Positions 7,284 through 36,661 of a stretch of DNA of 36,661 nt are shown one piece after another. The position numbers and the translations under genes are program-made. Source of the DNA: an uncultured Dehalococcoidia bacterium. GTDB taxonomy: Bacteria > Chloroflexota > Dehalococcoidia > Bin125. Position 1 is the first letter of the stretch; each line of letters starts with the position of its first letter. The stretch lies in contig CAZZMQ010000003.1 in NCBI GenBank assembly GCA_964655365.1, positions 10,750-47,410 of the forward strand. The letters run 5' to 3'. Under the pieces are notes generated by a model. That model had not been told where the DNA came from. It made no database searches and saw only the letters and a list, made by a program, of their open reading frames with translations.

Positions 7284-8116
7284 CGTGCCTCGCGGGCTCG
7301 GCCTACCAAGACATGAGGACAACCAACCTCTCACGTCAGGAGTCCCCACCTCAACTACCATCCGCCTCCGCTCGAAGATGGATCGAGACGATGTGCGCAT
7401 GGATATACCTGAGCTGACCCAAAATATTGCGGCAATTCGGCGTCAATATCTCGATCGCTGGTTTTACCTGGGCCGAGTTCAGCACAGGCGATCCATCACC
7501 GCGGCATCAATTCTAGGTTGGCTAATAGCAGCCCGCCCACGCCTCGATTTCGCGGGACCAACCCGTAGTTACTCGGCGCTGACACTTTCCTGCAGGAATA
7601 TGCAGAAGCCTTCGCAAAGCAACTCAGCGAAAGACGCAAAACCACCCTGAGAGCATCAAGGAACGCATGCTGTTAGACACTCTGGTCATGCCGGAAAACT
7701 GGGTTCGAAGGCTATGAGCTGAGCTGCGGCCACAAAGAGAACGACGGCCTCACAACCACGTACCACCTCACATTGCAGCAGCGACTTAAAAAGATAGCCG
7801 ACTCTTTACATCGTACGAATTTAAGCGCTGCTAGGGCGGCCATCGGGTCCAACAGCCTTGTGGCTTGGGACGGATCTGTGCCTTTGCCGGTAACCCCGAT
7901 CTCCCGGTGGAGAACGGACATTTGGCGCTAATCCCGCAACGTGGTGACGAAGTGACCCTAATAACGAACCAGGTCTCCATCTGAATCTCTTGAGACTGAA
8001 TATCTATCGGAGTAGGCAGTAGGACGTTCATCACTGTGGAACGATTCAGTTAGCTGTAGAAAGACCACCAACTCATGCAACATCCATCATCCGAACTCAT
8101 ACGAACTCGTACGCAT

Positions 8117-11933: not shown

Positions 11934-13376
<1,443 letters not shown>

Positions 13377-13396: not shown

Positions 13397-14071
13397 TCAG
13401 ACTGGCCGCTGATCGAGCCCTTGTTCAAGCCCTTGTTCGAGCCAAGTCAAATCAAACTCTTCCAATGAATCGATAATACGTGCGGCACCGGTCAATTTGA
13501 TCCCGGCCGTCATCTCGGTCCGCACCGCGATGACTTGCATACCAGCTCGACGCCCCGACTCGATCCCGGCCGGCGCATCCTCAATCACGGTGCAAACCCC
13601 AGGCTCCGCGCCCAGCTTAGCGGCCGCCGACAGATAGATCTCTGGGTCCGGCTTGCTTTGCTTTACCTCGTCGCCAGCAACAACCGCCTGGAAATTCTCT
13701 CGCATACCCAGCTTAGTCAAGGCTGTCTCCACCCAGTTGCGATTAGACGAAGAGGCCACAGCGCAGGGCACATCCGCCTCTTCCAATTGTTGCAACAACG
13801 CGTGGGCACCGGGCATCGCTTCCGCCTGGGTGCGGTATTGCTCCATCACTGCAAGGCCGTAGCGATCCGCGTAGTGGTCGTAGCCGTGTGCGAGACCGAA
13901 GCGGACACGTAGATCATTCCAGGTATGGTCCAACGTGGTACCGAGGTATTCCGTGTAGGTGACCATATCGAGTTCGACCTCTTCGTCGGCCAAGATTGCG
14001 TTCACGGCCGCAAAATGCAGCGGTTCGCCGTCCACTAGTACCCCATCCATATCAAACAAGACGGCCGGCAT
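13397..14071 (-). CDS. HAD-superfamily hydrolase (beta-phosphoglucomutase / sugar-phosphatase-like, subfamily IA)
   Basis: HAD motif I FDMDGVLVDGE, motif II VASSS, motif III K..KPDPEIY, and motif IV EDAPAGIESGRRAG. The ATG at 14071 is only 3 nt after the atpG stop codon. Confidence 0.85.
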   Translation of the reverse strand: MPAVLFDMDGVLVDGEPLHFAAVNAILADEEVELDMVTYTEYLGTTLDHTWNDLRVRFGLAHGYDHYADRYGLAVMEQYRTQAEAMPGAHALLQQLEEADVPCAVASSSNRNWVETALTKLGMRENFQAVVAGDEVKQSKPDPEIYLSAAAKLGAEPGVCTVIEDAPAGIESGRRAGMQVIAVRTEMTAGIKLTGAARIIDSLEEFDLTWLEQGLEQGLDQRPV

Positions 14072-14074
14072 ACG

Positions 14075-14965
14075 TCAGCCCAACGCTTCGACACCACCGA
14101 CGATGTCAAGCAATTCGATGGTGATCTGGTTCTGGCGGGCTTTGTTGTACTCTAGGGTGAGGTCGTCGATCATCTCGTTAGCCGCGTCGGTCGCGCTACG
14201 CATAGCCACCATTCGTGCCGACTGTTCCGAGGCGGACGCTTCCAGGATGGCTTGGTAGATCTGCATCTCCACATAGCGCGGCAACAACTCATCCAACACC
14301 TCCCGCGGGGACGGTTCGAAGATGTAATCGACCTCGCCCGAGGGACCATTCGAGCTCCGCTCCGCCTGTGGTGGCTCGACCGGCAGTACCTGGATCGTGG
14401 TGGGCCGCTGGTTAACCGTGCTCACAAATGAGGCGTATACAAGCAACACCTGGTCGACATCCCCAGCCAAGTAATCCTGCACCGCGACCGTCGAAATGGG
14501 GCGCGTCTCACCCAGCATGGGGTAATCGCCCAGATCCTGGAACTGAGCCCGGTAATTCAGGCCGAAGCGATGGAAGTACTCTAGTCCCCTGCGACCCACA
14601 GGTATCATAGAGACGTCTCCCGAACGCCCCGGGTTGAGCGCGATCTCGCCAGCGTGGCGCTGCAGATTAGAGATCAGTCCGCCGGCCAAGCCCCGATCCG
14701 GGCTGATGAGGATCACGGTGGTCTCATGCACCTCGCGGCGCTCTAGCAGGGGATGTAGGGCGCCACCGTCAGCGTCATCCGAGGCACCGGCAGTGGCCAG
14801 ATCGGCCAAGACGTGCCGCATCCGTTCAGCATAAGGTCGCGCCGCCAGCGCCCGCTCCTGCGCGCGACGCATCTTTGACGCCGCGACCAGCTGTAGGGCG
14901 TTCGTGATCTTGGCCGTGCTTTCGACGGAACGGATCCGTCGGCGAATTTCTCGAGTACTGGCCAT
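14075..14965 (-). CDS. atpG: F1 ATP synthase gamma subunit
   Basis: MASTREIRRRIRSVESTAKITNALQLVAASKMRRAQ N-terminus and ITIELLDIVGG C-terminus, both typical of gamma. Confidence 0.95.
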   Translation of the reverse strand: MASTREIRRRIRSVESTAKITNALQLVAASKMRRAQERALAARPYAERMRHVLADLATAGASDDADGGALHPLLERREVHETTVILISPDRGLAGGLISNLQRHAGEIALNPGRSGDVSMIPVGRRGLEYFHRFGLNYRAQFQDLGDYPMLGETRPISTVAVQDYLAGDVDQVLLVYASFVSTVNQRPTTIQVLPVEPPQAERSSNGPSGEVDYIFEPSPREVLDELLPRYVEMQIYQAILEASASEQSARMVAMRSATDAANEMIDDLTLEYNKARQNQITIELLDIVGGVEALG

Positions 14966-17705: not shown

Positions 17706-19609
<1,904 letters not shown>

Positions 19610-19655
19610 TCCGCTCCGCGCTTTCCCTGGACAATTAGGTGGCCAGCCGGTTTCG

Positions 19656-19886
19656 TTAGGACCCACGTCCTGCACGCAGAACATCGCGCAAGAGCCGGTA
19701 CGTGCCCCAGGCAGCTGCTGTCAGCCCTAGGATAAGCCCCAGCAGTACGAACAGCGGCTCCGTATTCAGCTCGCTGTCGAGCCAGAGCCCACCGATCGCG
19801 CCCAGCACGATGCTGGTGACGAAATACCAACCAATCCCTAGTAGTCCAAGGGCGGGCCGCAGTTGATTTCGCACTGCCGCCCCCAA
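19656..19886 (-). CDS. Small two-TM AtpI/AtpZ-like protein (ATP synthase gene 1 family)
   Basis: A 76-aa protein with two hydrophobic helices (LGLLGIGWYFVTSIVLGAIGGLWLD and LFVLLGLILGLTAAAWGTY). It lies immediately upstream of atpB, where atpI/atpZ normally sits. TTG start. The family call rests on position and topology only. Confidence 0.55.
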   Translation of the reverse strand: MGAAVRNQLRPALGLLGIGWYFVTSIVLGAIGGLWLDSELNTEPLFVLLGLILGLTAAAWGTYRLLRDVLRAGRGS

Positions 19887-24633: not shown

Positions 24634-26073
24634 TCAAGGCTCCTCTTTCAGAAGAAGCCAAGCCTGCTCAAGGCGCACGAAGTCTGCAGGCGGCGAATCC
24701 ACGCCGCCGTAGCGAAGCCGAGAGAAGCGCTCCGAAATCTCTACGGGGATGTCCGACTTGTACTGTGAATACAGGGTCATCGTGAACTGCAGCGGCGGGC
24801 GAGCGATCGGCCTGACGTTACCGCGGCGTTCCGCATCGGCTAACACATCGAAGTAGAGCCGTGCCAGAGGTAAATCGTGTTCTCCGGCGCCCACCCGACG
24901 GCGCAGTCGATTACGTACATTCTGCCAAGCGCCCTTTAAATCATCCAACACGTGCGCTTCGCTCCAAAGTGAGTCGCGCTCTTCATCAGCCGCGGTCGGT
25001 CGGGCCGCGAAACGCCGGAAAAGTACCACCACAAAGATGGCGAACACCACCACCAGGCCAATCGCGCCGAAAACACGCACCAGAACGGCGCCCGCCGATG
25101 AGGACTGATGCGCAGCTGTCTCCTCTCCCGGAAGTGCTTCCCCGTCATCGTCGAAATTGAAAGCCGGCAATTCTAACGTCCGCTCAGGCGGGTTGTCCGG
25201 AACAATCAGTTCGATCAGCCAAAACAGCGGCCAAAGCAAATACGCGATACCGAGAAATACATACCCCAGTCCATCACCGAGCACTTCCAGCACGGGCTCA
25301 GCGACTCCAGTCCCGGCTAGCCCTGCGATCACGAGCAACACGACCAGCATGAAGATCGCAACTGCGGCCCAAACCAAGCCAAGCGTCACAATAAACGTCA
25401 AACTGCTGCCACGGAGCGAACCCGCCACCTCCACCTTCGCCCGGCTCGCAGCGCGGAAGGCGACCACCGCGAGACCCACCATGACGTAGATCAGCGCCGC
25501 TAGCCGGACCGTGCCCTCGATGCCAAAGTCATTGCCTCCAACGAAGCCAGCTACAAAGGCAACGGCCGCGAAGACGCCGGGGCCCTGCAATGGACGATCC
25601 ACGACATCGGCCGTCCCCAGCAAGACTCCCCGGAACCAAACAAAAAAGAGGAGAAAGCCGCCGACCGTGTGATCGACGCGGCCGAATTTGCGAAACGCGT
25701 CACTGTCCGGGTCACCGAGATCACCAATCCAACCGAAATCCCAGACCCGAAGCGACTCCGAAAGATCGAGTCGGCCGATCACCTGCAGGGCGACGATGGT
25801 AAGCAGCGCGCCCAGCAGCCAACGCTGCGTTTTCGAGATCTCACGCCTAGCGAGCCAGCGGGTCGCAAACATCGCGACCCCCATCAAGCCCATCACACCC
25901 CATGCAGAGATCGTCTCGGAGTGATTGCCCGGAATCTTGCCGATGACCGCCACAATCACGACGATCGGCATCGCCTCAACCACGAGAGTCGCGAGACTCA
26001 GCGCCCCGTTCTCAAAGTCGAATCTGGATGGCAGGAGTTCAGTGGACTCGTCCCTGAGCTGAGCGTCCGTCAC
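24634..26073 (-). CDS. Multi-pass membrane protein with a C-terminal DUF4129-like domain (MoxR/DUF58-associated)
   Basis: 479 aa with at least 7 hydrophobic segments and no cysteine, so no transglutaminase catalytic core. After the last TM comes a C-terminal soluble region (LARLYFDVLADAERRGNVRPIARPPLQF...RFSRLRYGG) of the DUF4129 type. Its GTG start lies 1 nt downstream of the DUF58 stop codon (TGAgGTG). Confidence 0.7.
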   Translation of the reverse strand: MTDAQLRDESTELLPSRFDFENGALSLATLVVEAMPIVVIVAVIGKIPGNHSETISAWGVMGLMGVAMFATRWLARREISKTQRWLLGALLTIVALQVIGRLDLSESLRVWDFGWIGDLGDPDSDAFRKFGRVDHTVGGFLLFFVWFRGVLLGTADVVDRPLQGPGVFAAVAFVAGFVGGNDFGIEGTVRLAALIYVMVGLAVVAFRAASRAKVEVAGSLRGSSLTFIVTLGLVWAAVAIFMLVVLLVIAGLAGTGVAEPVLEVLGDGLGYVFLGIAYLLWPLFWLIELIVPDNPPERTLELPAFNFDDDGEALPGEETAAHQSSSAGAVLVRVFGAIGLVVVFAIFVVVLFRRFAARPTAADEERDSLWSEAHVLDDLKGAWQNVRNRLRRRVGAGEHDLPLARLYFDVLADAERRGNVRPIARPPLQFTMTLYSQYKSDIPVEISERFSRLRYGGVDSPPADFVRLEQAWLLLKEEP

Positions 26074-26074
26074 C

Positions 26075-26998
26075 TCAGCTGCCCCCGTCGCTGCTGGGAC
26101 TCGCGGCTAGATAATCGCCGTCGGACTCGCCTTCCCTGCGCCGCGCCCAGACACTCTCGCGTGATCCCAGCGGGGCCTGCGACCCCCCCATGCGTCCCGC
26201 CCCCGAGTCGGGCCCGTCGGGCCCACCGCCGTTACCGCCCGCCGCACCACCACCCAGCGGCTCATAATCCTCCTCTAGCCGAACTTCAAGATCCTTGCGC
26301 TTGAGCGAATGTCCATCGACACGGGTAAACGCGATGCCATCCAGTGCCTCCCGCACGTCCTGAATCAGCGCACCGCCAAATTCTGTCGGTGGGTCCTCTA
26401 TCCCCAGGTAGATCACGGCCACTTGGTGCCCGCGCTGCTTCACACGCCGCAACGCCTCGGCCAGACGCGGCGGAGTGAGCGCCGTGACGAGCACGATCGT
26501 GCTACCCAGCGGGAGGCGGCGCGCCTCTTCATCCACCAACCGATCCATCGTCACCAACGTGAACGAATCCACCATCGCCAAGGCCTCCAGTACCGTCAGC
26601 AACTGACGATCGCTGCGCCCAGCTGGCACCCTAATCGTGGAGTCCTCCATGGGGAAAGAGCAATTTGAGATCAGGCCAAAAGGCAGCCGCTCGTTGGCGT
26701 ACACCGTAGCCAGCGTCGCGGCGACGGAGATGGCCTGCTCATAGATCTCCGCGATGAATCCCTGATACGGCTCGGGCACCGTTGTCACGTTGAGGGCGAT
26801 GACAATCTGCGGATTGCTCGATGGATCATAAATCCGGCTCTGCAGTTTTCGGTGGCGCGCCGTCGCCTTCCATTCGACGCGCTTGAGCGGATCACCGCCG
26901 CGATAGTCGCGCAAGCCTTTGAGTCGGGAGGGGTCCTCAAACAGCGGCTGCCCGCCCGCCGTTTCTCCATAGGGATGGTGCAGCGGGATATCCAACAC
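26075..26998 (-). CDS. DUF58 family protein, C-terminal portion (conserved RDYxxGD motif plus vWA-like domain and a Gly-rich tail)
   Basis: LKGLRDYRGGDPLKRVEWKATARHRKLQSRIYD is the DUF58 signature. It is followed by an alpha/beta region and a roughly 70-aa Gly/Ser/Asp-rich tail. It is in frame with 27002-27658, separated by a TAG and one Glu codon. Confidence 0.8.
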   Translation of the reverse strand: MLDIPLHHPYGETAGGQPLFEDPSRLKGLRDYRGGDPLKRVEWKATARHRKLQSRIYDPSSNPQIVIALNVTTVPEPYQGFIAEIYEQAISVAATLATVYANERLPFGLISNCSFPMEDSTIRVPAGRSDRQLLTVLEALAMVDSFTLVTMDRLVDEEARRLPLGSTIVLVTALTPPRLAEALRRVKQRGHQVAVIYLGIEDPPTEFGGALIQDVREALDGIAFTRVDGHSLKRKDLEVRLEEDYEPLGGGAAGGNGGGPDGPDSGAGRMGGSQAPLGSRESVWARRREGESDGDYLAASPSSDGGS

Positions 26999-27001
26999 TT
27001 C

Positions 27002-27658
27002 CTACGGGACAGTCTCCGGGTATACCCATAACTTTTGGATCGTGGAGTCTTCCTGTTGCCGCGTGAAGAATCCAAACAGATCACCCGAGCGCAAGCGCGT
27101 CGCACCAAACTGGTAGAACCCGCGCGCAACGAGCGGAATCATGTACGTCCACACGATGCGCTCGTACCAGCGCATGCTCGTGCGACGGTCAATCAACGCC
27201 TCGTCACTGCCGTTCGTGAATGAGAGCTGTCGGTTATTCGGCGCCAACACCGGTGGTAGTGAGAGCCGCACCTCCAACCAGGGCAACGGCAAAAGTTTGC
27301 GGTTCTCAATCCGTACCCGCCAATCAATCGACTCGCCAACGAAGGCATGTGTCTGGGACAGTTCTTGTGACGTCTCGACCAAGCGCAGCGACCATCGGCC
27401 CCAGAGGCGCGCCAACCAGCCGGCGACAAAGACCGCCGCACCCACTAGCGACACAATCACCTCGTCGGAGGCAATACCGATCACGATTACCAGCAGCGAT
27501 GCGATCACCCAGCTCTCACGCAAAGCACGATTCTCTTGCGGCTCAACGAAGCGCGAGAGGGCCTGTCGATGCTCGCGTTGCTTATGCCGTTTCTCTAATT
27601 TGGCCTCCGCCTGCTCATCCGGATCCTGACCACCACTACCCCGAGAAAAAAACGCCAT
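27002..27658 (-). CDS. DUF58 family protein, N-terminal portion (two TM helices plus a beta-rich region), ending at an in-frame TAG
   Basis: The N-terminal hydrophobic pair (WVIASLLVIVIGIA.../VSLVGAAVFVAGWLARLW) and the region up to ...GDLFGFF...VYPETVP correspond to the part of DUF58 proteins that precedes the RxYxxGD motif. The ATG at 27658 is 2 nt after the moxR stop. Confidence 0.7.
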   Translation of the reverse strand: MAFFSRGSGGQDPDEQAEAKLEKRHKQREHRQALSRFVEPQENRALRESWVIASLLVIVIGIASDEVIVSLVGAAVFVAGWLARLWGRWSLRLVETSQELSQTHAFVGESIDWRVRIENRKLLPLPWLEVRLSLPPVLAPNNRQLSFTNGSDEALIDRRTSMRWYERIVWTYMIPLVARGFYQFGATRLRSGDLFGFFTRQQEDSTIQKLWVYPETVP

Positions 27659-27660
27659 AG

Positions 27661-28632
27661 CTAGGCTTCGATCGGAACCGGCACCCTCTGCAGCACCTCC
27701 GCGAGCACGGAGTCCGTCGTGCCGGAGCGCAGGCGGCTTTGGGTCGACAGACGGAGGCGATGCGGCAGCACCGCGGGTGCCATCTCTTGCACATCGTCTG
27801 GCAATACATAATCCCTGCCACGGATCGCAGCCAGCGCCCGGCTGGTGCGCAGCAGGGCCAGCGAGCCACGCGGACTCGCACCCAAATCGAAGGCATCCTC
27901 GTCACGCGTCGCCTGGACCAACGAAACGATGTAACTCCGCACGCGTTCGTGTACTTGTATCTGTTCCACCGCCTTGGCCATGGCCAACAGCTGTGACCCA
28001 TCAACCACGGGCTCCAGTTCTTCCAGTGGCTCCGCCCTCTCAAATCGGACGAGGATGGCATCCTCCTCCTCCGGCGTCGGATAGCCCAGGTTGAGCCGCA
28101 GCAGAAAACGGTCGAGCTGTGCCTCGGGCAGAGGAAACGTTCCCTCGAGTTCGACAGGATTCTGCGTGGCAATGGCCAGGAAAGGGCGCGGCATCGTCAA
28201 CGTTTCACCTTCGACGGTGAGCTGCCGTTCCTCCATCGCCTCCAACAAGGCCGACTGTGTGCGCGGACTAGCGCGATTGATCTCGTCGGCCAAGACAAGC
28301 TGCGCCAGTAACGGTCCAGCGCGAAACTCAAACTCGCCGCTCTTCTGGTTGTAGATGTTGATCCCGGAAATATCGGCCGGCATCAGATCTGGTGTGAATT
28401 GGATGCGGCGGAATTCCAAACCGAGTGATCGCGCCAGCGACTTTGCCAGCATTGTCTTGCCCAACCCCGGCACATCGTCCAATAAGATGTGCCCCTCGGA
28501 GAGGAGCGCTACCAGGACATAGTCGATCGCCCGTTCTTTGCCTACGATCACGCGGGCCACGCTCTGCCGAATACGGTCCGCCAAAGCTGTGACCTCACTA
28601 AGCGTGGGCGCGGTGTTATCGGAGTCGTGCAC
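27661..28632 (-). CDS. MoxR-family AAA+ ATPase (MRP-type)
   Basis: Walker A LLDDVPGLGKTMLAKSLA, RIQFTPDLMPADISG, Walker B VLADEINRASPRTQSALLEAMEE, and a C-terminal lid (GASPRGSLALLR). 323 aa. Confidence 0.93.
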   Translation of the reverse strand: MHDSDNTAPTLSEVTALADRIRQSVARVIVGKERAIDYVLVALLSEGHILLDDVPGLGKTMLAKSLARSLGLEFRRIQFTPDLMPADISGINIYNQKSGEFEFRAGPLLAQLVLADEINRASPRTQSALLEAMEERQLTVEGETLTMPRPFLAIATQNPVELEGTFPLPEAQLDRFLLRLNLGYPTPEEEDAILVRFERAEPLEELEPVVDGSQLLAMAKAVEQIQVHERVRSYIVSLVQATRDEDAFDLGASPRGSLALLRTSRALAAIRGRDYVLPDDVQEMAPAVLPHRLRLSTQSRLRSGTTDSVLAEVLQRVPVPIEA

Positions 28633-31179: not shown

Positions 31180-31421
31180 TTCCCGACGAGGTGCTCGCCG
31201 GACGGTACCTGGTGGATTCAGACGCCCATGGAGCTCCCATGGTCAAGTTCCAATCGCACCCTCGGACGTAGCCGATCGCCTCGTCTTATGAATCGCGACA
31301 CGACGTACCAGTGCCACCTTGACTCACGTCAGATCGCGCGCGAGTTGGCCTCACAATGAACAATGCCGATCATCAACGACCGGCTCCCCCACCAATCCAA
31401 TGGAAAGTGCAGATCAACCCA

Positions 31422-34400
31422 TCACTGCGTCAGCGTCCGATACAGCGTAGGTAAGCGACGCGGCAACGCTTCGATGTCGGCTACCACTTCGTATCCCATA
31501 TCAGTGCACATCTGCTGCAAGTAGTCGTGTCCGGCACGATCCACGGTCAGAGCGAACGGCGTCATACCCTCGCGCCGCGCCTCAGTCAGCGCCATCTTGG
31601 TGTCATGGATAGCGTATTCCTTCTCCGTGCGATCACGCCCGTAGCCATGGTCCTGCGGACGCCCATCGGAGATCAACACAAGGATCTTAATCTTCGCACC
31701 AGTGTCCTTCAGCTTCGCAATGGTATGCCGGATCGCCGGACCCATCCGAGTCGAACGCACCGGGCTGATCTTATCGACACGTTTTTTGATCTTATCGTCA
31801 AAGACTTCGTCCGTATCTTTGATCACATAAAACTCATAATTGTCGCGCCCATATCCGCTGAATCCGTAGACGCCGTAGGTATCACCGATCGTCTCCAACG
31901 CCTCAATCAGCAGAACCACAGCCTCTTTCTCAAGGTCGATGATGCGCTTGCCAGGATTCTTCGCCTCTTGCGCGCGCCGCTGCGCCCACCAACTCAAGTA
32001 CTTGCGTGGGTCATCATCGAACTGGTCGTCGTCGCCAGCTCTGTGCTGGGTTTTCTGGATCTCTTCGTCAGTTGAGGCCGACATATCTAGCAGGAACGCC
32101 ACTGCGACATCTCGATCGACCTTGTTGCGGCGGTAGAATAACTTCTGCTCCGACGTCGCCCCAGCGATGCGCTCTACATACCACTCAATCACCGCATCCA
32201 GATCGAAATCTTCACCGTCAGGCAGGCGCTTGATCTTGCGGAACATCTCCGGCCGCAAAAGCTCGAACTGCTTGCGCGTCTCACGCACCAGCGCAGAGTT
32301 CGCGCGCAGCGTTTCGTCGTAGTAGTCGATCGCACCGGTGTCGATCCGCTGCTCTTGTACTCGGCACCACCGTGGCTTGTAGTCGTTGGCGCGGAAATCC
32401 CACTCGTCGTAGAAGAAAGATTCCGGTTCTTCCGCCAGCGGACTGTCGTCTTCTTCCCCACCAATCTCCTCGCCGGACTGCTTCTGCTGAGCTTGCTGGG
32501 CAGCCTGCTGTGCCGCTTCAACTTCCTTCATCAAGTTGTCGAGGAACATACCGGATGAGTCAGCCAATTCCCCGTCCATCATCTCGTTGATCGAGATCTC
32601 CACGCTCTTCTCCAGCAGCTCCTGCAGCTGCTCCTTGGTCAGCGGTACCGGCGGCTGATCGCCGGTTCCTTCCTGTGCCTTGAGCTTCATTAGCAATTGC
32701 ACAAGTTCGGGCTTGAAGTCACCCCGGAAGTCAACTGGGTCCGGACTCTCGTAGGGCTGCTCCTGACTACCCGGTTGGGCCGGCATCGACGACTCTTCCA
32801 TGGAGTCGCCACCCTGCATACCAGGCATCATCTCGCCATCCTCGTCCTCACCCTGCATCTGCTGCGGCAGGTCGAGGTCGTCCCAGTCGGGGGAATCGAG
32901 TTCCACGTTCGGCACTCGCGACAACCAGCGATAAAGCTGCAGTGTCGCTTCGGCCGAGTCCTCAACCGTCGCCGCCGTGCCACGAATCTGGTCGAGCACG
33001 CCGAGCGGCTCATTCATCAGTGGCGCCAGTTCACGCGGCCAACGAATCGCCGAGCGGGCGTCCAGGCTGGCGCGCAGAAGGTTCTCCACCATCGCCTCGC
33101 GCGCCGGCATCTCATCTACCGGCCTCCGCTGCTCCATCGCCTCGTCCTGTAGGCGCTGCAGCGACCTACGAATCCCAGCATATTCCCGCTTCACCGTCGT
33201 ATCGATTCGAGTGTCCTCCACGATAGTGAATAGATCGTGCGCAAGTTTGCGATCCTCGAACAGGTCGAAGAAGCGCTCCATCTCGGTAATCGGCTCAGTA
33301 GAAGTTTCTTCGCCTTCGTCCGTGACCACCCCACCCTTCGCGTCGCCATCCCCCTTCCGTGGTGGAAGCACTGGCTGACTTTTGTGACGCTGCTCATCGC
33401 TGAAGACGCCGCCGGGCGCATCGAAATCGAAACTGAAGGACCCGAATTCCAACCGTGCCGCCTGATGCGTCGCGAAGACTTTGTAGACGGCGAAGTTGTC
33501 GTCCTTGCTCTGGTATTTTTCCACCATCGGCGGCAGGTAGATTGCGGTGCCCTCAGTCGTGGGTGCCGCCTCGTTGACCCAGCCAACGCCCTTCTCGGTC
33601 AGGTTCTCGACGGTTTGCACCGAAACGTCGTGACCCGTCAGCGCCTTGGCATACATCCGGATCAGCTCACTGACCCGGTCCAGCTCGACCCGAGACGAAA
33701 GCGACTCGATGATCTCCTCACCCTTCGACGACTCGAGGCGGAAGAACGCCTCTCCGCCATCGACGCTCTGGCTGAGGATCTCGATCCCCTTCTCGAGGCA
33801 TACATCGAAGGGGACCGGACTCGGGTTTCGCAGGACCGAGGGGCTCGCCTTAACAAATTCCATGGCGGCGATGCCAGACTGTGGCACAATTCCCTCGGCC
33901 AGCTCCAACAGCTCGCGATGGGAATCCTTCTCGACTTCGGCCAAGGCAGATGCCGCTTCCATGAAATAAGGATGCCCCAAGCGGCCCACATTGAGCGCCA
34001 CACGCCCCGCTAACGCCAGGTAGCGCGCTCGCTGCTGCGAGTGCACCTGGCGCACAAGCGACGGACCACGCTCGAAGTAGACCCGGGCGTCGACCCATGC
34101 GGTGTTGGCGACAACGGAGCCGAACTCCAAGAACGGCGCTCGGTCCGGCCGATCGAGCTGCTCCAAGACCTTGGGCGACATCGTCAGACAAGCGCTGGCC
34201 AACTCGTAGGAGTGGCTGGCCAATGAGTCGATCACCTCGACGAGAAGACGCATCTGGCTCAGCGGCAACTGAGGCAACACCTGTGGGCTGACTTCGAAGT
34301 ACTGCGCCGCTAGCGATCCCGATTTCCAGGTCCCCTTATAGAGCGAGCGACCCTGTTCGCCCCAGTCGCTAGCCTGCGTTACCGAAAGGTAGTCGAGTGC

Positions 34401-34730
34401 CTCCGGACTGGAGCGGAAGTACGATCCTGCCAGAGCGGGCGATGCTTCCAGCAATTCTTCCCCGGTCCCTATCCACTCTCGGAAGCGCTGGTACGTAAGC
34501 CGGGTCAGCATCGCGGGACTGGCACGGAAGTACTCGCTAGCCGCCTCCCAGGAGCGCAAGGAATGACGCGCAACCCCTACACCTGCCCCGGCCCAGCCAT
34601 CCAACTCCTGGTCGGAGAGCACTTCGCTGAGGCTGCCACGGGCGGTCTCAAACTCTTGAAGCAAAGCCGGCGGAAAGGCCCGCAATGCCTCACGCGTCTG
34701 GCTCAGCTGTTCACTCTGGGAATCTGCCAT
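31422..34730 (-). CDS. NorD/CbbO-family von Willebrand factor A protein, long form (1102 aa) with an N-terminal 37-aa repeat array
   Basis: The C-terminal vWA domain (about 31425-32111) has intact MIDAS elements (VAFLLDMSASTD ... GFSGYG ... LISDGRPQD). The central region has NorD/CbbO-type segments (TAIYLPP, LFTIVEDTRID, FFYDEWDF). It lies downstream of a CbbQ/NorQ ATPase in the same operon. Confidence 0.85.
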   Translation of the reverse strand: MADSQSEQLSQTREALRAFPPALLQEFETARGSLSEVLSDQELDGWAGAGVGVARHSLRSWEAASEYFRASPAMLTRLTYQRFREWIGTGEELLEASPALAGSYFRSSPEALDYLSVTQASDWGEQGRSLYKGTWKSGSLAAQYFEVSPQVLPQLPLSQMRLLVEVIDSLASHSYELASACLTMSPKVLEQLDRPDRAPFLEFGSVVANTAWVDARVYFERGPSLVRQVHSQQRARYLALAGRVALNVGRLGHPYFMEAASALAEVEKDSHRELLELAEGIVPQSGIAAMEFVKASPSVLRNPSPVPFDVCLEKGIEILSQSVDGGEAFFRLESSKGEEIIESLSSRVELDRVSELIRMYAKALTGHDVSVQTVENLTEKGVGWVNEAAPTTEGTAIYLPPMVEKYQSKDDNFAVYKVFATHQAARLEFGSFSFDFDAPGGVFSDEQRHKSQPVLPPRKGDGDAKGGVVTDEGEETSTEPITEMERFFDLFEDRKLAHDLFTIVEDTRIDTTVKREYAGIRRSLQRLQDEAMEQRRPVDEMPAREAMVENLLRASLDARSAIRWPRELAPLMNEPLGVLDQIRGTAATVEDSAEATLQLYRWLSRVPNVELDSPDWDDLDLPQQMQGEDEDGEMMPGMQGGDSMEESSMPAQPGSQEQPYESPDPVDFRGDFKPELVQLLMKLKAQEGTGDQPPVPLTKEQLQELLEKSVEISINEMMDGELADSSGMFLDNLMKEVEAAQQAAQQAQQKQSGEEIGGEEDDSPLAEEPESFFYDEWDFRANDYKPRWCRVQEQRIDTGAIDYYDETLRANSALVRETRKQFELLRPEMFRKIKRLPDGEDFDLDAVIEWYVERIAGATSEQKLFYRRNKVDRDVAVAFLLDMSASTDEEIQKTQHRAGDDDQFDDDPRKYLSWWAQRRAQEAKNPGKRIIDLEKEAVVLLIEALETIGDTYGVYGFSGYGRDNYEFYVIKDTDEVFDDKIKKRVDKISPVRSTRMGPAIRHTIAKLKDTGAKIKILVLISDGRPQDHGYGRDRTEKEYAIHDTKMALTEARREGMTPFALTVDRAGHDYLQQMCTDMGYEVVADIEALPRRLPTLYRTLTQ
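33636..34553 (-). repeat. Coding tandem repeat: about 8 degenerate 37-residue units (one of 40) in the N-terminus of the vWA protein
   Basis: The motif a-x-[YF]-F-x-x-[SG]-P-x-x-L recurs with its aromatic pair at residues 67, 104, 144, 181 (degenerate CL), 218, 255, 292 and 329. That is a spacing of 37, 40, 37, 37, 37, 37, 37, counted by hand. Confidence 0.7.
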
Positions 34731-34767
34731 CGCTCGTTATCCCGCCATCAGTCTGCGTCCGGCTCTT

Positions 34768-35379
34768 TTAGCTCTCGTCTGTCGTAGCAGGGCGGGCAGG
34801 GTCCGGAAAATTTCCGAATGTCACCGCCTCCGTCTGCGTGTCCAACACAGCATACGAAACCTGAAAGTCGTTTCCGGGATCGCGCGGCTCACCGGTGGAA
34901 CCGGGGTTGATAATCAACGCGCCGTCTACACGGGTCTCGAGTTGATGGTGCGTGTGCCCGTAGATCAAGATGTCTGCATCCTCGTCCGCCAGCCGCTGCA
35001 GATCCGGGCTGCTCGGGTATAGATAATCCCGGTACGGCTCCCATGGTGTGGCATGGAAGATCAGCAACCTTTTACCGTCAACGGTCGTGCGCAGATAATG
35101 CGGCTTCTCCCGCGTCCACTCCAACAAGTCTTGATCGACCTTCTCGGATTGCTGAGCCCGGATCCCGGCCGGGCTCAGCAAAATATCCTCGTGGTTGCCG
35201 AGCACGTACCGGGCACCACACTCCCGCAGACGTTTCGCCACAGGATTGGAGAAGCGGAATTGGTAGCAGGCATCGCCAGCACAGATCAGTTCGTCGATGG
35301 CACCCATTTCCTCTAGCGCCTGATCCAATGCCTGGATGTTGTCATGAATGTCCGAGACGATGCCTAGCCGCACCGCCAC
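34768..35379 (-). CDS. Metallophosphoesterase (YfcE/MJ0936-like calcineurin-fold phosphodiesterase)
   Basis: All metallophosphoesterase motifs are present: SDIHDN (DxH), AGDA (GD), GNHED (GNHD/E), FHATP (H), GHTHH (GH), and PGSTG. 203 aa, GTG start. Confidence 0.85.
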   Translation of the reverse strand: MAVRLGIVSDIHDNIQALDQALEEMGAIDELICAGDACYQFRFSNPVAKRLRECGARYVLGNHEDILLSPAGIRAQQSEKVDQDLLEWTREKPHYLRTTVDGKRLLIFHATPWEPYRDYLYPSSPDLQRLADEDADILIYGHTHHQLETRVDGALIINPGSTGEPRDPGNDFQVSYAVLDTQTEAVTFGNFPDPARPATTDES

Positions 35380-35437
35380 CCCCTCGGACGCCGGGCGAAG
35401 CCCCGGCCGCTACGCAGAGCCACAGCCAACACGCGGC

Positions 35438-36322
35438 CTAGTCCTCAAAGATTGATGTGACGACTTCTTCGATGCTGCGCTGCACCTCAGTATCGTCGGT
35501 CAGAGCCCACGCGATCGCCACCTGGCAGGCCCGGCGTGGCGACGTGCCGCTGTTGATTAGCTTCCCCGCATAGATCAGCAACCGCGTACTGGCGCCCTCG
35601 CTAAGCCCGTGCTCACGCAAGTTGCGCACCTTTTCTCCCAGCCGCGCCAGATCCAATGCGATCGAAGGATCCACGCCCGACTCGTGCGCAACGATGTCCG
35701 CCTCCGTCTCGCGCGGGGGATACCCGAACTCTATCGAGATGAACCGCTGACGCGTTGAGTGTTTGAGGTCCTTCAGTGCGCTCTGGTAGCCCGGGTTGAA
35801 CGAGATCACCAGCAAGAAACCATCGCGCGCCTGCAGCAATTGCGACTTCTTCTCCACCGGCAGGATGCGGCGGTGGTCAGTCAGGGGGTGGATCAAAACC
35901 GTCGTGTCTTTGCGTGCCTCAACAACCTCGTCGAGATAGCAAATTGCACCGGCCTTGACCGCACGCGTCAGCGGCCCGTCGATCCATACCGTCTCCTGTC
36001 CTTCGAGCAGGTAGCGACCAACCAAGTCAGACGCGGTCAGATCTTCGTGGCAAGCCACGGTCACCAGTGGAAGGTTGGTTTCCTCCTCCACACCATCGTT
36101 GCCCTCCACAAAGCGGTTGAGGTGATAGGCCATATGCTCTACAAAACGAGTCTTGCCACACCCGGTCGGTCCCTTCAACAACACCGGAATCTTGGCCTCC
36201 CAAGCTGCCTGGAAGATCTCGATCTCGTCGTTGACGGGAACGTAGTAGGGCTCTTCCTCAGCCCGGTACTCCTCCACCGCCCAAGAGCGATATTCGGTCT
36301 GCGGTCCCGTCGCGGTCGTCAT
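35438..36322 (-). CDS. CbbQ/NirQ/NorQ/GvpN-family AAA+ ATPase
   Basis: Walker [19 protein letters not shown], Walker [14 protein letters not shown], and a C-terminal CbbQ_C-like helix bundle ([15 protein letters not shown]...[13 protein letters not shown]). 294 aa. Confidence 0.92.
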
Positions 36323-36350: not shown

Positions 36351-36661
36351 TTAGGTGCCGGCGCTGATTCGCTGCTGTAGTTCGTCCCACACTTCGTGAA
36401 CGCGGCCGGCCACCTCTTCCAGGGAGCAATCGGTACTGATCACAAGGTCGGCGTGTTCGATCCGCTCATCATTCGATATCTGGGAGTTTATCCGGTTGCC
36501 CGCATCCTCCGCGCTCAGCCCGTTACGTTCCATCAGTCGCTCCCGTGCAACATCCGGTGGCACCGTCACAACCCACACCTCGTCGACCAGATTCTGCCAG
36601 CCAGCCTCAATCATCACGGCCGCCTCCAGCACTGCAACGGCTGCCCCCTCCGCGTCCAGCC
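36351..36661 (-). CDS. coaE: Dephospho-CoA kinase, C-terminal part (gene continues beyond the window end)
   Basis: LLIEAG-type segment ([47 protein letters not shown]), typical of the CoaE lid and C-terminus. The reading frame stays open to position 36661. Confidence 0.8.

Follow-up and report, generated by a model that had tools for sequence, protein, structure and literature searches.

A coaE-linked NorQ/NorD-type ATPase-VWA gene pair with a frequent but dispensable phosphoesterase companion in Chloroflexota

We analyzed a 36,661-nt stretch of DNA (hereafter the window) from an uncultured Dehalococcoidia bacterium, in which coaE is followed head-to-tail on the minus strand by three genes encoding a MoxR AAA+ ATPase (Q), a metallophosphoesterase (MPE) and a very long VWA protein (O); their features are listed in Table 1. 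The coaE frame was open up to base 36659, and the spacings were 28 nt between coaE and Q, 58 nt between Q and MPE, and 37 nt between MPE and O. A consensus scan revealed no promoter-like or terminator-like site in these intergenic gaps, and the same type of scan placed a terminator-like hairpin beyond O. Thus, given the short gaps, the lack of internal signals and the hairpin after O, the four genes likely form one operon with coaE as its first gene. All genes in the window were of the housekeeping type. Among related loci, coaE was the most constant neighbor, lying directly upstream of Q in 63 of the 67 informative cases (94%); in one relative of just 24% identity it was found downstream of O. 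The locus was syntenic, with coaE and cinA/MBL as its fixed neighbors even at class-level divergence, and the linkage with coaE may be plain conserved synteny.

Table 1. Positions of genes and features in the window
Feature	Positions	Strand	Remarks
coaE (dephospho-CoA kinase), C-terminal part	36351..36661	-	Pfam CoaE E 3e-15; truncated by window edge
Q, CbbQ/NorQ-class MoxR AAA+ ATPase, 294 aa	35438..36322	-	AAA_5 + CbbQ_C
Q Walker A GPTGCGKT (residues 51-58)	36149..36172	-	
Q H2-insert motif (residues 102-111)	35990..36019	-	alignments to 5c3c, 6l1q, 9qh4, 9qhd
MPE, YfcE/MJ0936-type metallophosphoesterase, 203 aa	34768..35379	-	Metallophos_2, TIGR00040
O, NorD/CbbO-like VWA adaptor, 1102 aa	31422..34730	-	whole gene, stop codon included
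O residues 1-345, family-specific alpha-solenoid	33696..34730	-	predicted, pLDDT about 90
O residues 346-621, helical middle domain	32868..33695	-	weakly common to shorter NorD/CbbO-like proteins
O residues 622-769, acidic Gln-rich linker	32424..32867	-	predicted disordered; pLDDT <50 over 622-729, 749-765
O residues 770-874, pre-VWA YDEWDF element and finger	32109..32423	-	PdNorD alignment
O finger (about residues 828-874)	32109..32249	-	mapped from PdNorD finger 403-448 (PMC13036017)
O residues 875-1102, VWA domain	31425..32108	-	Pfam VWA at 931-1079, sole Pfam match of O
O MIDAS DMSAS (residues 882-886)	32073..32087	-	plus T994, D1022
Terminator-like hairpin	31365..31384	-	about 40 nt past O stop codon; consensus scan only

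Profile searches assigned Q to the CbbQ/NorQ class (AAA_5, E 1e-30; CbbQ_C, E 7e-31), and the solved CsoCbbQ, CbbQ and NorQ structures matched it at E values from 5e-101 to 5e-91, with 50-60% identity to CbbQ and NorQ. Residue-level alignments to 5c3c, 6l1q, 9qh4 and 9qhd located the Walker B pair (D131-E132) and the H2-insert motif, which has been defined as GRxLL/IxxxxT (PMC13036017). A 14-aa insertion (F71-L84) was specific to the lineage. The MPE product, which would be 201 aa long if the alternative GTG start at 35373 is used, matched Metallophos_2 (E 7e-27) and TIGR00040 (YfcE; 61.6 bits, above the 56.25 cutoff). All five of its motifs (D10-x-H12, G35-D36, G61-N62-H63, H109 and G141-H142-x-H144) were invariant in 20 orthologues, and its closest solved relatives were 3rqz, 3qfm, MJ0936, 2qjc (a putative Ap4A hydrolase) and YfcE.

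The O protein is labelled 'NorD' in databases. Solved NorD chains aligned with its residues 769-1100 (E 1e-37), and the NorD VWA domain was the best fold-search match of the predicted O model (E 2e-12, TM 0.68), which was of moderate overall quality (pLDDT 68, pTM 0.40), with low confidence for the finger. The MIDAS residues D882, S884, S886, T994 and D1022 were invariant in 30 homologues, as were P827, E828, R831, K832, G839, D843, D845, R868, N869 and K870 in the segment of the YDEWDF element and finger. The VWA domain also contains an insertion of about 40 aa (887-928) and ends in a C-terminal docking tail (...LYRTLTQ). At the other end of the protein, the predicted solenoid is built from helical hairpins, about 7-8 in number and ~37 aa each, in which the motif YF..SP..L recurs (register at residues 67, 104, 144, 218, 255 and 292), and its off-register tblastn matches reached E values of 1e-7 to 3e-13. 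In a search of 1.84 billion representatives it was confined to proteins of ~1,000-1,130 aa, at identities down to 22%, and designed repeat proteins were its only matches in the fold search. In the middle domain (pLDDT about 80 over 480-620), THQ and VEDxRID were among the invariant motifs, and residues 374-443 matched a 724-aa gammaproteobacterial O with 31% identity (BLASTP, E 1e-9). The linker that follows has a counterpart in NorD, where it is functionally essential (PMC13036017). Genome and metagenome scans recovered full-length O homologues of 42-95% identity, and every named member belonged to Chloroflexota or Dehalococcoidia; the long-O family is coherent and Chloroflexota-specific.

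These results agree with a preliminary description made from the sequence, which had recognized three co-directional genes past coaE, spaced by 58 and 37 nt (as the ORF coordinates bear out), a CbbQ/NorQ-class ATPase with a CbbQ_C-like end, a YfcE/MJ0936-type dimetal phosphoesterase with intact catalytic motifs, and a 1102-aa NorD/CbbO-type protein with a competent MIDAS. Its further claims for O, an extra N-terminal repeat scaffold of about 350 aa and an acidic and Gln-rich linker, correspond to the predicted solenoid and the disordered segment, respectively.

To describe the gene order more generally, we reduced 146 related loci to 88 informative de-replicated groups. Q and O were directly adjacent in 41 groups, and 23 groups (plus 2 probable ones) had the order Q-MPE-O, with O identities down to 50%. 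A CoA-pyrophosphatase-like Nudix gene occupied the slot in 6 groups, all deep-branching, a secreted cyclophilin lipoprotein in 4 and an SDR in 1, and O had no adjacent Q in 10. The slot Nudix proteins of three deep subgroups formed one orthologous family (5-nt gap, 4-nt overlap), whose top NCBIfam match was CoA pyrophosphatase, but at 92-123 bits, below the 134-bit cutoff. In the 503 kb of sequence flanking the direct Q-O loci, no MPE or Nudix of the slot families was found; thus, any accessory role of these enzymes must be dispensable or supplied from elsewhere. Q-MPE-O is a genuine gene order that recurs and is inherited vertically, and MPE is a frequent but dispensable companion of Q/O and no fixed third subunit. 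The question raised earlier of whether the three genes form a conserved triad thus has a divided answer: the order recurs in 23-25 of the 88 groups, but its slot is variable. The preliminary description had also known of no characterized Q-phosphoesterase-O triad, and our literature search likewise found no description of such an arrangement.

The window contained no genes for Rubisco and none of the nor, cox or gvp type, the Rubisco motif was absent from the 54 genome loci searched, and nor, cox and gvp genes were missing from the Pfam-labelled neighborhoods of related loci. The earlier view of a Q/O-type module with no familiar client nearby therefore holds for the window and extends to ~146 related loci. 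The same description had proposed MPE as either the client or the output enzyme of an ATP-driven switch, to be doubted if orthologous Q/O pairs generally lacked it or lay beside Rubisco, nor, cox or gvp genes; the former proved largely true and the latter did not occur. In addition, 59 sites in the N-terminal domain of O, its putative client-binding part, were conserved whether or not a lineage had MPE, and no site was conserved in each set but different between them. The solenoid is thus under equal constraint in the two sets of lineages. This argues that MPE is not what Q/O acts on, and MPE is probably not the client of Q/O.

As a leading but still tentative explanation, we propose that Q/O could be a remodeller of the NorQD/CbbQO type whose client is encoded elsewhere, with MPE as an optional accessory and coaE-Q-MPE-O as one transcription unit on the chromosome of marine Dehalococcoidia-type Chloroflexota. 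All sequence features tied to NorQD/CbbQO function (Walker A/B, H2-insert, finger, MIDAS, tail and linker) were present. By homology, one O would be bound per Q hexamer, with its finger expected to enter the central pore, where it would contact the H2 inserts, and its C-terminal tail docking on Q as well; ATP hydrolysis would then rotate the VWA domain and finger as one unit against the N-terminal domains and stretch the 150-aa acidic linker. The client enzyme, presumably the same across all lineages of the long-O family and distinct from MPE, may be gripped by the MIDAS face and the solenoid and pried open so that a cofactor or metal can enter or a tightly bound ligand can leave. MPE occupies the position taken by the Nudix enzyme in deep-branching relatives, and would most likely hydrolyze a nucleotide- or CoA-type small molecule tied to the process; this role and the link to CoA are read from gene order only. 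CbbY and CA1Pase, for comparison, destroy inhibitors that Rubisco activases release.

A related but rather unlikely reading is that Q/O remodels an unlinked client and MPE is simply inherited in a housekeeping operon whose Q-O interval tolerates insertions. The 41 direct groups have no gene there, and because the slot also takes an SDR and exported cyclophilin lipoproteins, which cannot be cytosolic partners, it is permissive and MPE could be such a passenger. Moreover, an MPE orthologue occurs by itself in a gammaproteobacterium (L059), another lies 7 kb from an O without a nearby Q (L056), and MPE was lost early at one locus inside the MPE clade (L014). However, the MPE and Nudix families, which are unrelated but overlap in their chemistry, recur in the slot among very deeply diverged lineages, MPE and O lie a median of 6 nt apart and have stop/start overlaps in 8 of 19 cases, and Q and MPE stay adjacent where O has moved elsewhere (L060). 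The co-divergence of MPE with both O and Q (Mantel r 0.89, 0/2000 permutations) also counts for a hydrolase coupled to Q/O, although genes passed down vertically in the same genomes would show it in any case, and so do the Ap4A-hydrolase-type enzymes among the closest solved relatives of MPE. It seems improbable that MPE, or Nudix in the deep branches, is itself the client, with Q/O loading its dimetal center or reactivating an inhibited active site. In its favor, no other gene that is not a chaperone component lies from Q to O in the window, 23-25 groups keep the triad order, and an enzyme requiring two metal ions would suit MoxR/VWA systems, which often serve metalloenzymes (NorQD, for example, inserts FeB into cNOR; PMC9976466). 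Yet most Q/O pairs have no MPE in slot or flanks, the structurally unrelated Nudix accompanies the same O architecture, the N-terminal domain of O shows no MPE-specific differences, and orthologous MPEs occur away from Q/O. Nor is there a known precedent for a 1,100-aa adaptor and a hexameric motor serving a 200-aa hydrolase whose family normally self-assembles.

Still less credence can be given to an ordinary CbbQO Rubisco activase or NorQD maturation pair with client genes elsewhere in the genome, which would fit the identity of Q to CbbQ and NorQ, the database label of O, and the precedent of CbbQ/O homologues unlinked to Rubisco (PMC4633670, PMC5437159). Against it, none of the ~146 loci contains a Rubisco or nor gene, O exceeds CbbO or NorD by 340-460 aa with a unique solenoid, and coaE is tied to the locus in 94% of cases. 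The family also spans very diverse Dehalococcoidia, most of which, to our knowledge, neither denitrify nor fix CO2 by the Calvin cycle. Finally, an NTPase-vWA conflict or anti-phage system with the phosphoesterase as effector, which the preliminary description had offered as an alternative, is extremely improbable and found no support. Nudix and phosphoesterase domains can act as effectors, and MoxR-vWA ternary conflict systems exist (PMC7159879), but PADLOC returned no significant match, the locus is syntenic housekeeping DNA with vertical co-divergence, and its vWA protein lacks the effector or sensor domains typical of conflict systems.

Compared with known systems, the locus resembles those conflict systems (Kaur et al., 2020) in pairing a MoxR-class ATPase with a vWA protein, at times along with a third gene. 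Theirs belong to other MoxR clades and carry effector/sensor domains in variable contexts, whereas the present locus keeps its synteny, is inherited vertically and was not detected by PADLOC. MPE shares the five dimetal motifs, a length of about 200 aa and a TIGR00040 score above cutoff with YfcE/MJ0936/SapH-type enzymes, but only in this lineage does its gene separate a MoxR ATPase gene from that of the VWA partner. Rubisco activase with CbbY XuBPase or CA1Pase offers a functional analogy only, an ATP-driven remodeller plus a small hydrolase that could destroy the released ligand; here the hydrolase is MPE or Nudix rather than HAD or PGM-type, and the pairing is optional and read from gene order. 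With CbbQ/CbbO the locus shares its best-scoring solved relative of Q (CsoCbbQ, E 5e-101) and, by homology, the Q6:O1 adaptor logic and MIDAS-dependent client grip, but the loci lack Rubisco and any identifiable H/KR-tailed client, and O is about 340 aa longer. In comparison with NorQ/NorD, the cNOR FeB-insertion chaperone (9qh4-9qhg), O has 1102 instead of about 640 aa, with a 345-aa solenoid found nowhere else and the post-MIDAS insertion of ~40 aa, and its locus is coaE-linked, lacks nearby nor genes and has a slot for a hydrolase gene separating Q from O. On the other hand, the alignment of Q with NorQ (E 4e-91) runs from end to end and takes in the H2-insert motif, O 769-1100 shares the YxEWD element, finger, MIDAS and C-terminal tail (equal in length) with NorD, and both systems have a long disordered linker ahead of the VWA domain and adjacent, co-directional genes.

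The three open reading frames of the module, which encode a CbbQ/NorQ-class AAA+ ATPase (Q), a YfcE-type metallophosphoesterase (MPE) and a NorD/CbbO-like VWA protein (O), were confirmed at exactly the coordinates assigned to them in the preliminary description, with gaps of 58 nt between Q and MPE and 37 nt between MPE and O. The coaE gene, interrupted by the window edge, ends 28 nt upstream of Q. A consensus scan revealed no promoter-like or terminator-like site in the intergenic gaps between coaE, Q, MPE and O, and placed a terminator-like hairpin approximately 40 nt beyond the O stop codon. The remaining window was occupied by housekeeping genes (gyrA, rex, mreB, murA, the F-ATPase operon, pyrF, comB, cinA and an MBL-fold gene) and a second MoxR-DUF58 cluster. 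Gene annotation found no Rubisco, nor, cox or gvp genes anywhere in the window, in agreement with the first reading of the sequence.

The second MoxR system is unrelated to Q/O and, besides its MoxR and DUF58 genes, includes ORFs of 218 and 479 aa without an assigned family; thus, two distinct modules of the MoxR class lie less than 9 kb apart in this genome. In the operon for the F-type ATP synthase, atpG and atpD are separated by a HAD-family hydrolase gene; the ATP synthase a-subunit ORF is 549 aa long and has two Pfam ATP-synt_A stretches, the better-scoring of which spans only residues 403-529. A comparably long a-subunit was called in a related locus (L055).

Coordinates of features in the window and in related loci (Lnnn)
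Feature	Locus	Coordinates	Strand	Length
Q	window	36322..35438	minus	294 aa
Acidic insertion in Q (residues 71-84)	window	36071-36112		14 aa
MPE	window	35379..34768	minus	203 aa
O	window	34730..31422	minus	1102 aa
Insertion in O (residues 887-928)	window	31947-32072		~40 aa
Second MoxR system	window	24634-28632	minus
MoxR gene (AAA_3 + AAA_lid_2)	window	27661..28632	minus
DUF58 gene	window	26075..26998	minus
ATP synthase a-subunit ORF	window	18035-19684	minus	549 aa
atpG	window	14075..14965
HAD-family hydrolase	window	13397-14071	minus
atpD	window	11934..13346
Long ATP synthase a-subunit	L055	21720-23234
Nudix directly upstream of O	L132	767-1375
Nudix directly upstream of O	L133	7360-7956
Nudix directly upstream of O	L139	1454-2029
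Nudix directly upstream of O	L140	~7421-7966
Nudix directly upstream of O	L141	9441-10004
Nudix directly upstream of O	L142	1-483
Cyclophilin-type PPIase between Q and O	L026	9306-9989
Cyclophilin-type PPIases between Q and O	L036	8134-8964 and 9040-9555
Cyclophilin-type PPIase between Q and O	L106	2970-3746
Cyclophilin-type PPIase between Q and O	L113	1541-2329
Q-O-coaE	L144	655-4602
Short gammaproteobacterial Q/O pair	L051	7761-11749
Short gammaproteobacterial Q/O pair	L042	7808-11704

Profile searches, alignments to solved structures and a fold search upheld the families proposed for all three proteins. Q matched the Pfam models AAA_5 (107.1 bits, cutoff 22) and the CbbQ_C lid domain (106.7 bits, cutoff 20.6), and solved CsoCbbQ, CbbQ and NorQ aligned with it end to end (E 5e-101 to 5e-91). 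Alignment to 9qh4 and 5c3c identified both the Walker A and the Walker B motif and showed that Q retains the H2-insert motif GRxLL/IxxxxT as a ten-residue stretch; in NorQD, this motif contacts the VWA finger (PMC13036017). An acidic insertion after the Walker A helix of Q is missing from solved CbbQ and NorQ and varies in length among relatives.

For O, VWA was the sole Pfam match (30.4 bits, cutoff 23.8), and residues 769-1100 were the only part significantly aligned with solved NorD chains (E 1e-37). An AlphaFold2 model built on 30 homologues (pLDDT 68, pTM 0.40) returned the NorD VWA domain as the top match in a fold search and the Midasin MIDAS domain as the second. The N-terminal residues 1-345 were confidently predicted (pLDDT ~90) to form an alpha-solenoid of helical hairpins of ~37 aa with a recurring motif, YF..SP..L. 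The repeat was backed by off-register tblastn matches (E 1e-7 to 3e-13), by the motif register and by the model; BLAST self-comparison of the O N-terminus gave no off-diagonal matches, and a fold search with the solenoid recovered designed helical repeats only, with no natural analogue. The model then places a helical middle domain at residues 346-621, the sole N-terminal part detectably similar to a shorter, 724-aa gammaproteobacterial O, and a disordered acidic, Gln-rich linker at residues 622-769. Residues 770-874 comprise a YDEWDF element followed by a conserved 47-aa segment (~828-874), which was modelled at low confidence and aligns opposite the finger of PdNorD (residues 403-448). A hairpin at residues 770-795 had also been considered as the finger and gave way to this segment when PdNorD numbering was transferred through the alignment. 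According to a 2026 cryo-EM study of NorQD, the NorD finger enters the NorQ pore, and the NorD C-terminal tail docks on the post-sensor-1 loop (PMC13036017); the sequence alignment showed that O ends two residues past a conserved Leu, as NorD does. The VWA domain (residues 875-1102) has a complete MIDAS site (DxSxS...T...D), with D882, S884, S886, T994 and D1022 invariant in 30 homologues. With the putative finger and docking tail, the MIDAS site and the H2-insert motif, Q and O appear, at the level of sequence, to carry all features tied to NorQD/CbbQO function. The acidic/aromatic insertion of O lies right after DxSxS; the close family retains it, the group typified by homologue P0371 has a different version and that typified by P0338 a short one, and it could modulate the client-binding face.

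Long O proteins of this kind form a large family. Full-length relatives numbered in the hundreds (42-95% identity), and the named ones were all from Chloroflexota or Dehalococcoidia. An exhaustive HMMER search of 1.84 billion representative proteins with the solenoid only gave 362 matches, which, except for apparent fragments and one probable chimera, were proteins of 1,000-1,130 aa with the solenoid at the N-terminus and identity down to 22%. A profile built from distant solenoid members again retrieved only Chloroflexota-labelled proteins, and the next-ranked matches were ordinary NorD/CbbO-like proteins of ~770 aa, aligned over the C-terminal 30% alone. Thus, the long O is a form of the NorD/CbbO adaptor confined to one lineage. 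In one 913-aa representative protein (P0272), the solenoid lies at residues 368-686, after a membrane and sensor-kinase-like N-terminus and before low-complexity sequence; a frameshift or a chimeric gene call probably accounts for this arrangement better than a new architecture would. Separately, two gammaproteobacterial short Q/O pairs (L051 and L042), from Thioalkalivibrio sp. HK1 and a MAG, adjoin rho, have an opposite-strand 232-aa gene between Q and the 724-aa O and show no Rubisco motif within 10 kb; they are a further 'orphan' Q/O type.

We then compared gene order in 54 loci from species-representative genomes, 80 metagenomic loci and 12 loci obtained by exact-protein look-up, reading the neighbourhoods from called genes with Pfam labels (flanks up to 10 kb per side) and de-replicating at 95% O identity into 88 informative groups. 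O had a Q partner beside it in the window, as it did in 78 of the 88 groups, and lacked an adjacent Q in the other 10. Q and O were directly adjacent in 41 groups, and the position between them (hereafter the slot) was occupied by MPE in 23 (plus 2 probable), Nudix in 6, a cyclophilin-type PPIase with a lipoprotein signal in 4, and an SDR and an unknown gene in 1 each. The cyclophilins belong to one part of the O tree; L036 has two of the 5 copies, and 4 of the 5 have a lipoprotein-like signal peptide. A first tblastn survey had suggested that MPE was restricted to close relatives (O identity at least 60%), which was overturned by metagenome loci, by a further coaE-Q-MPE-O locus (L058; MPE 57% and O 56% identical) and by a locus in which coaE-Q-MPE is intact with Q still beside coaE and O elsewhere (L060). 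In a neighbour-joining tree of O, MPE filled the slot throughout one large clade including the window, with a single loss (L014), and at no fewer than two further places; a second large clade had Q directly against O.

Of 67 informative loci, 63 had coaE as the gene directly preceding Q, and in the divergent L144 (solenoid 24% identical) coaE was directly downstream of O. The slot of the deepest branches held one orthologous Nudix family (members 31-50% identical), found in four loci whose O is 42-44% identical (L132, L133, L139 and L140) and in L141 and L142, which are much more divergent. The Nudix of L141 is tightly packed (5-nt gap and 4-nt overlap), with no coaE nearby. The top NCBIfam match of the slot Nudix proteins was CoA pyrophosphatase (92-123 bits, under the cutoff of 134). 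Gene order suggests a possible link of Q/O to CoA.

MPE itself matched Metallophos_2 and exceeded the cutoff of TIGR00040 (YfcE), and its five dimetal motifs were all invariant in 20 orthologues. Its nearest solved relatives were uncharacterised MPEs, the MJ0936 and YfcE phosphodiesterases and Ap4A-hydrolase-type enzymes. MPE and Nudix families converge repeatedly on shared nucleoside-diphosphate-X substrates, such as ApaH and RppH on Ap4A, or ADPRibase-Mn and NudF on ADP-ribose; a functional swap between MPE and Nudix is therefore chemically plausible.

The preliminary description had proposed that MPE is the client or the output enzyme of Q/O. This proposal of a triad was borne out only in part: the triad indeed recurs, but almost half of the groups have Q directly beside O. 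Across 24 triad loci, MPE and O distances correlated (Mantel r 0.89; 0 of 2000 permutations), the median MPE-O gap was 6 nt, and stop and start codons overlapped in 8 of 19 cases. An MPE orthologue also stands alone in a gammaproteobacterium (L059), and the 503 kb of flanks around the 41 direct Q-O loci contained no MPE or Nudix of the slot families. When O conservation was compared between 26 sequences from MPE lineages and 35 from direct Q-O pairs, 59 solenoid positions were at least 90% conserved with the identical residue in both groups, and no position of the solenoid, finger or VWA regions was conserved but different. Thus, the solenoid, as the putative specificity domain, is under the same constraint with or without MPE. 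This uniform constraint, together with the presence of a structurally unrelated Nudix alongside the same architecture, suggested that all lineages share one client, distinct from the slot gene; the argument would lose weight if direct Q-O genomes, for which the flanks were searched, encode MPE elsewhere. We consider it quite unlikely that MPE is the client.

A remodeller with an unlinked client, accompanied by an optional slot hydrolase whose substrate would be a small molecule of the nucleotide or CoA type, is the reading that we tentatively adopt, at somewhat less than an even chance. Judging from gene order, the role of this hydrolase would most likely be accessory. That it is a pure passenger, a reading favoured by the many direct Q-O pairs and the varied slot contents and disfavoured by the close packing of MPE and O, appears unlikely, with a probability that is still appreciable.

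For the remodeller with an unlinked client, a mechanism can be modelled on homology with NorQD and CbbQO (PMC9976466, PMC13036017, PMC5437159). By homology, we infer a Q6:O1 complex in which a Q hexamer with ATPase activity and one O would be joined through the finger in the pore and through the C-terminal tail. Driven by ATP hydrolysis, the VWA/finger unit would rotate with respect to the N-terminal domains, stretching the acidic linker. MIDAS and solenoid would hold an acidic patch of a client encoded elsewhere, which might then open to let a cofactor in or a ligand out. The slot hydrolase would most likely be an optional, small-molecule-directed partner, by analogy with the inhibitor phosphatases that partner Rubisco activases. 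A bolder and rather improbable version is 'evict-and-destroy' repair, in which the coaE-linked Q/O would act on a conserved housekeeping enzyme, either freeing it of a dead-end ligand derived from CoA or a nucleotide or opening it to a cofactor; the ligand would then be broken down by an interchangeable NDP-X hydrolase, and CoaE would complete the salvage loop. The module would then be ancient and Chloroflexota-wide, with a CoA-pyrophosphatase-like Nudix in deep lineages displaced by a metallophosphoesterase in the lineage of the window. If true, CoA metabolism would gain its first MoxR/VWA system, and the chaperone operon would exemplify the displacement of one hydrolase by a non-orthologous one.

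MoxR/VWA pairs are widespread and, to our knowledge, only a handful of their clients are known (Rubisco, cNOR, CODH, methanol dehydrogenase and Frd/Nuo). The family defined here is large and lineage-specific: its O proteins are 1,000-1,130 aa long and share a solenoid of their own, coaE is linked almost universally, and a hydrolase slot recurs. These features offer concrete handles and a tractable route toward a new MoxR/VWA client class. Full-text literature searches turned up no account of a Q-phosphoesterase-O or Q-Nudix-O gene order, or of coaE beside Q, in line with the statement in the preliminary description that no characterised triad of this kind was known; earlier reports go no further than some CbbQ/O homologues unlinked to Rubisco (PMC4633670, PMC5437159). 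Databases routinely label genes of the long-O family 'NorQ/NorD', and microbiome studies have used such labels to argue for NO reduction (e.g. PMC6081418). Reading NO reduction from these labels in Chloroflexota is unsupported, a common annotation error that our analysis corrects.

A defence or conflict system of an NTPase and a vWA protein, with a phosphoesterase effector, had been raised as a less likely alternative. It was not borne out: PADLOC gave nothing significant (best E 2e-4 to 7e-3, to unrelated AAA models), the position of the locus between coaE and cinA/MBL is housekeeping synteny conserved across class-level divergence, and O lacks the effector and sensor domains carried by MoxR-vWA conflict systems (PMC7159879). 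A canonical Rubisco or NOR activase was also rejected as very unlikely, given the distinct architecture of O and the absence of a linked client gene from ~146 loci: no nor genes were found in the window or the Pfam-labelled neighbourhoods, and no RbcL active-site motif in the 54 genome loci (L001-L054, including the gammaproteobacterial short pairs), with the same result in the Pfam-labelled loci. NorQD is linked to norCB and has a NorD of ~640 aa with a NorD N-domain, and CbbQO is linked to Rubisco or carboxysome genes and has a CbbO of ~760 aa, whereas O here reaches 1102 aa. The Q/O module described here is specific to its lineage, has a long adaptor and lies in a conserved operon setting.
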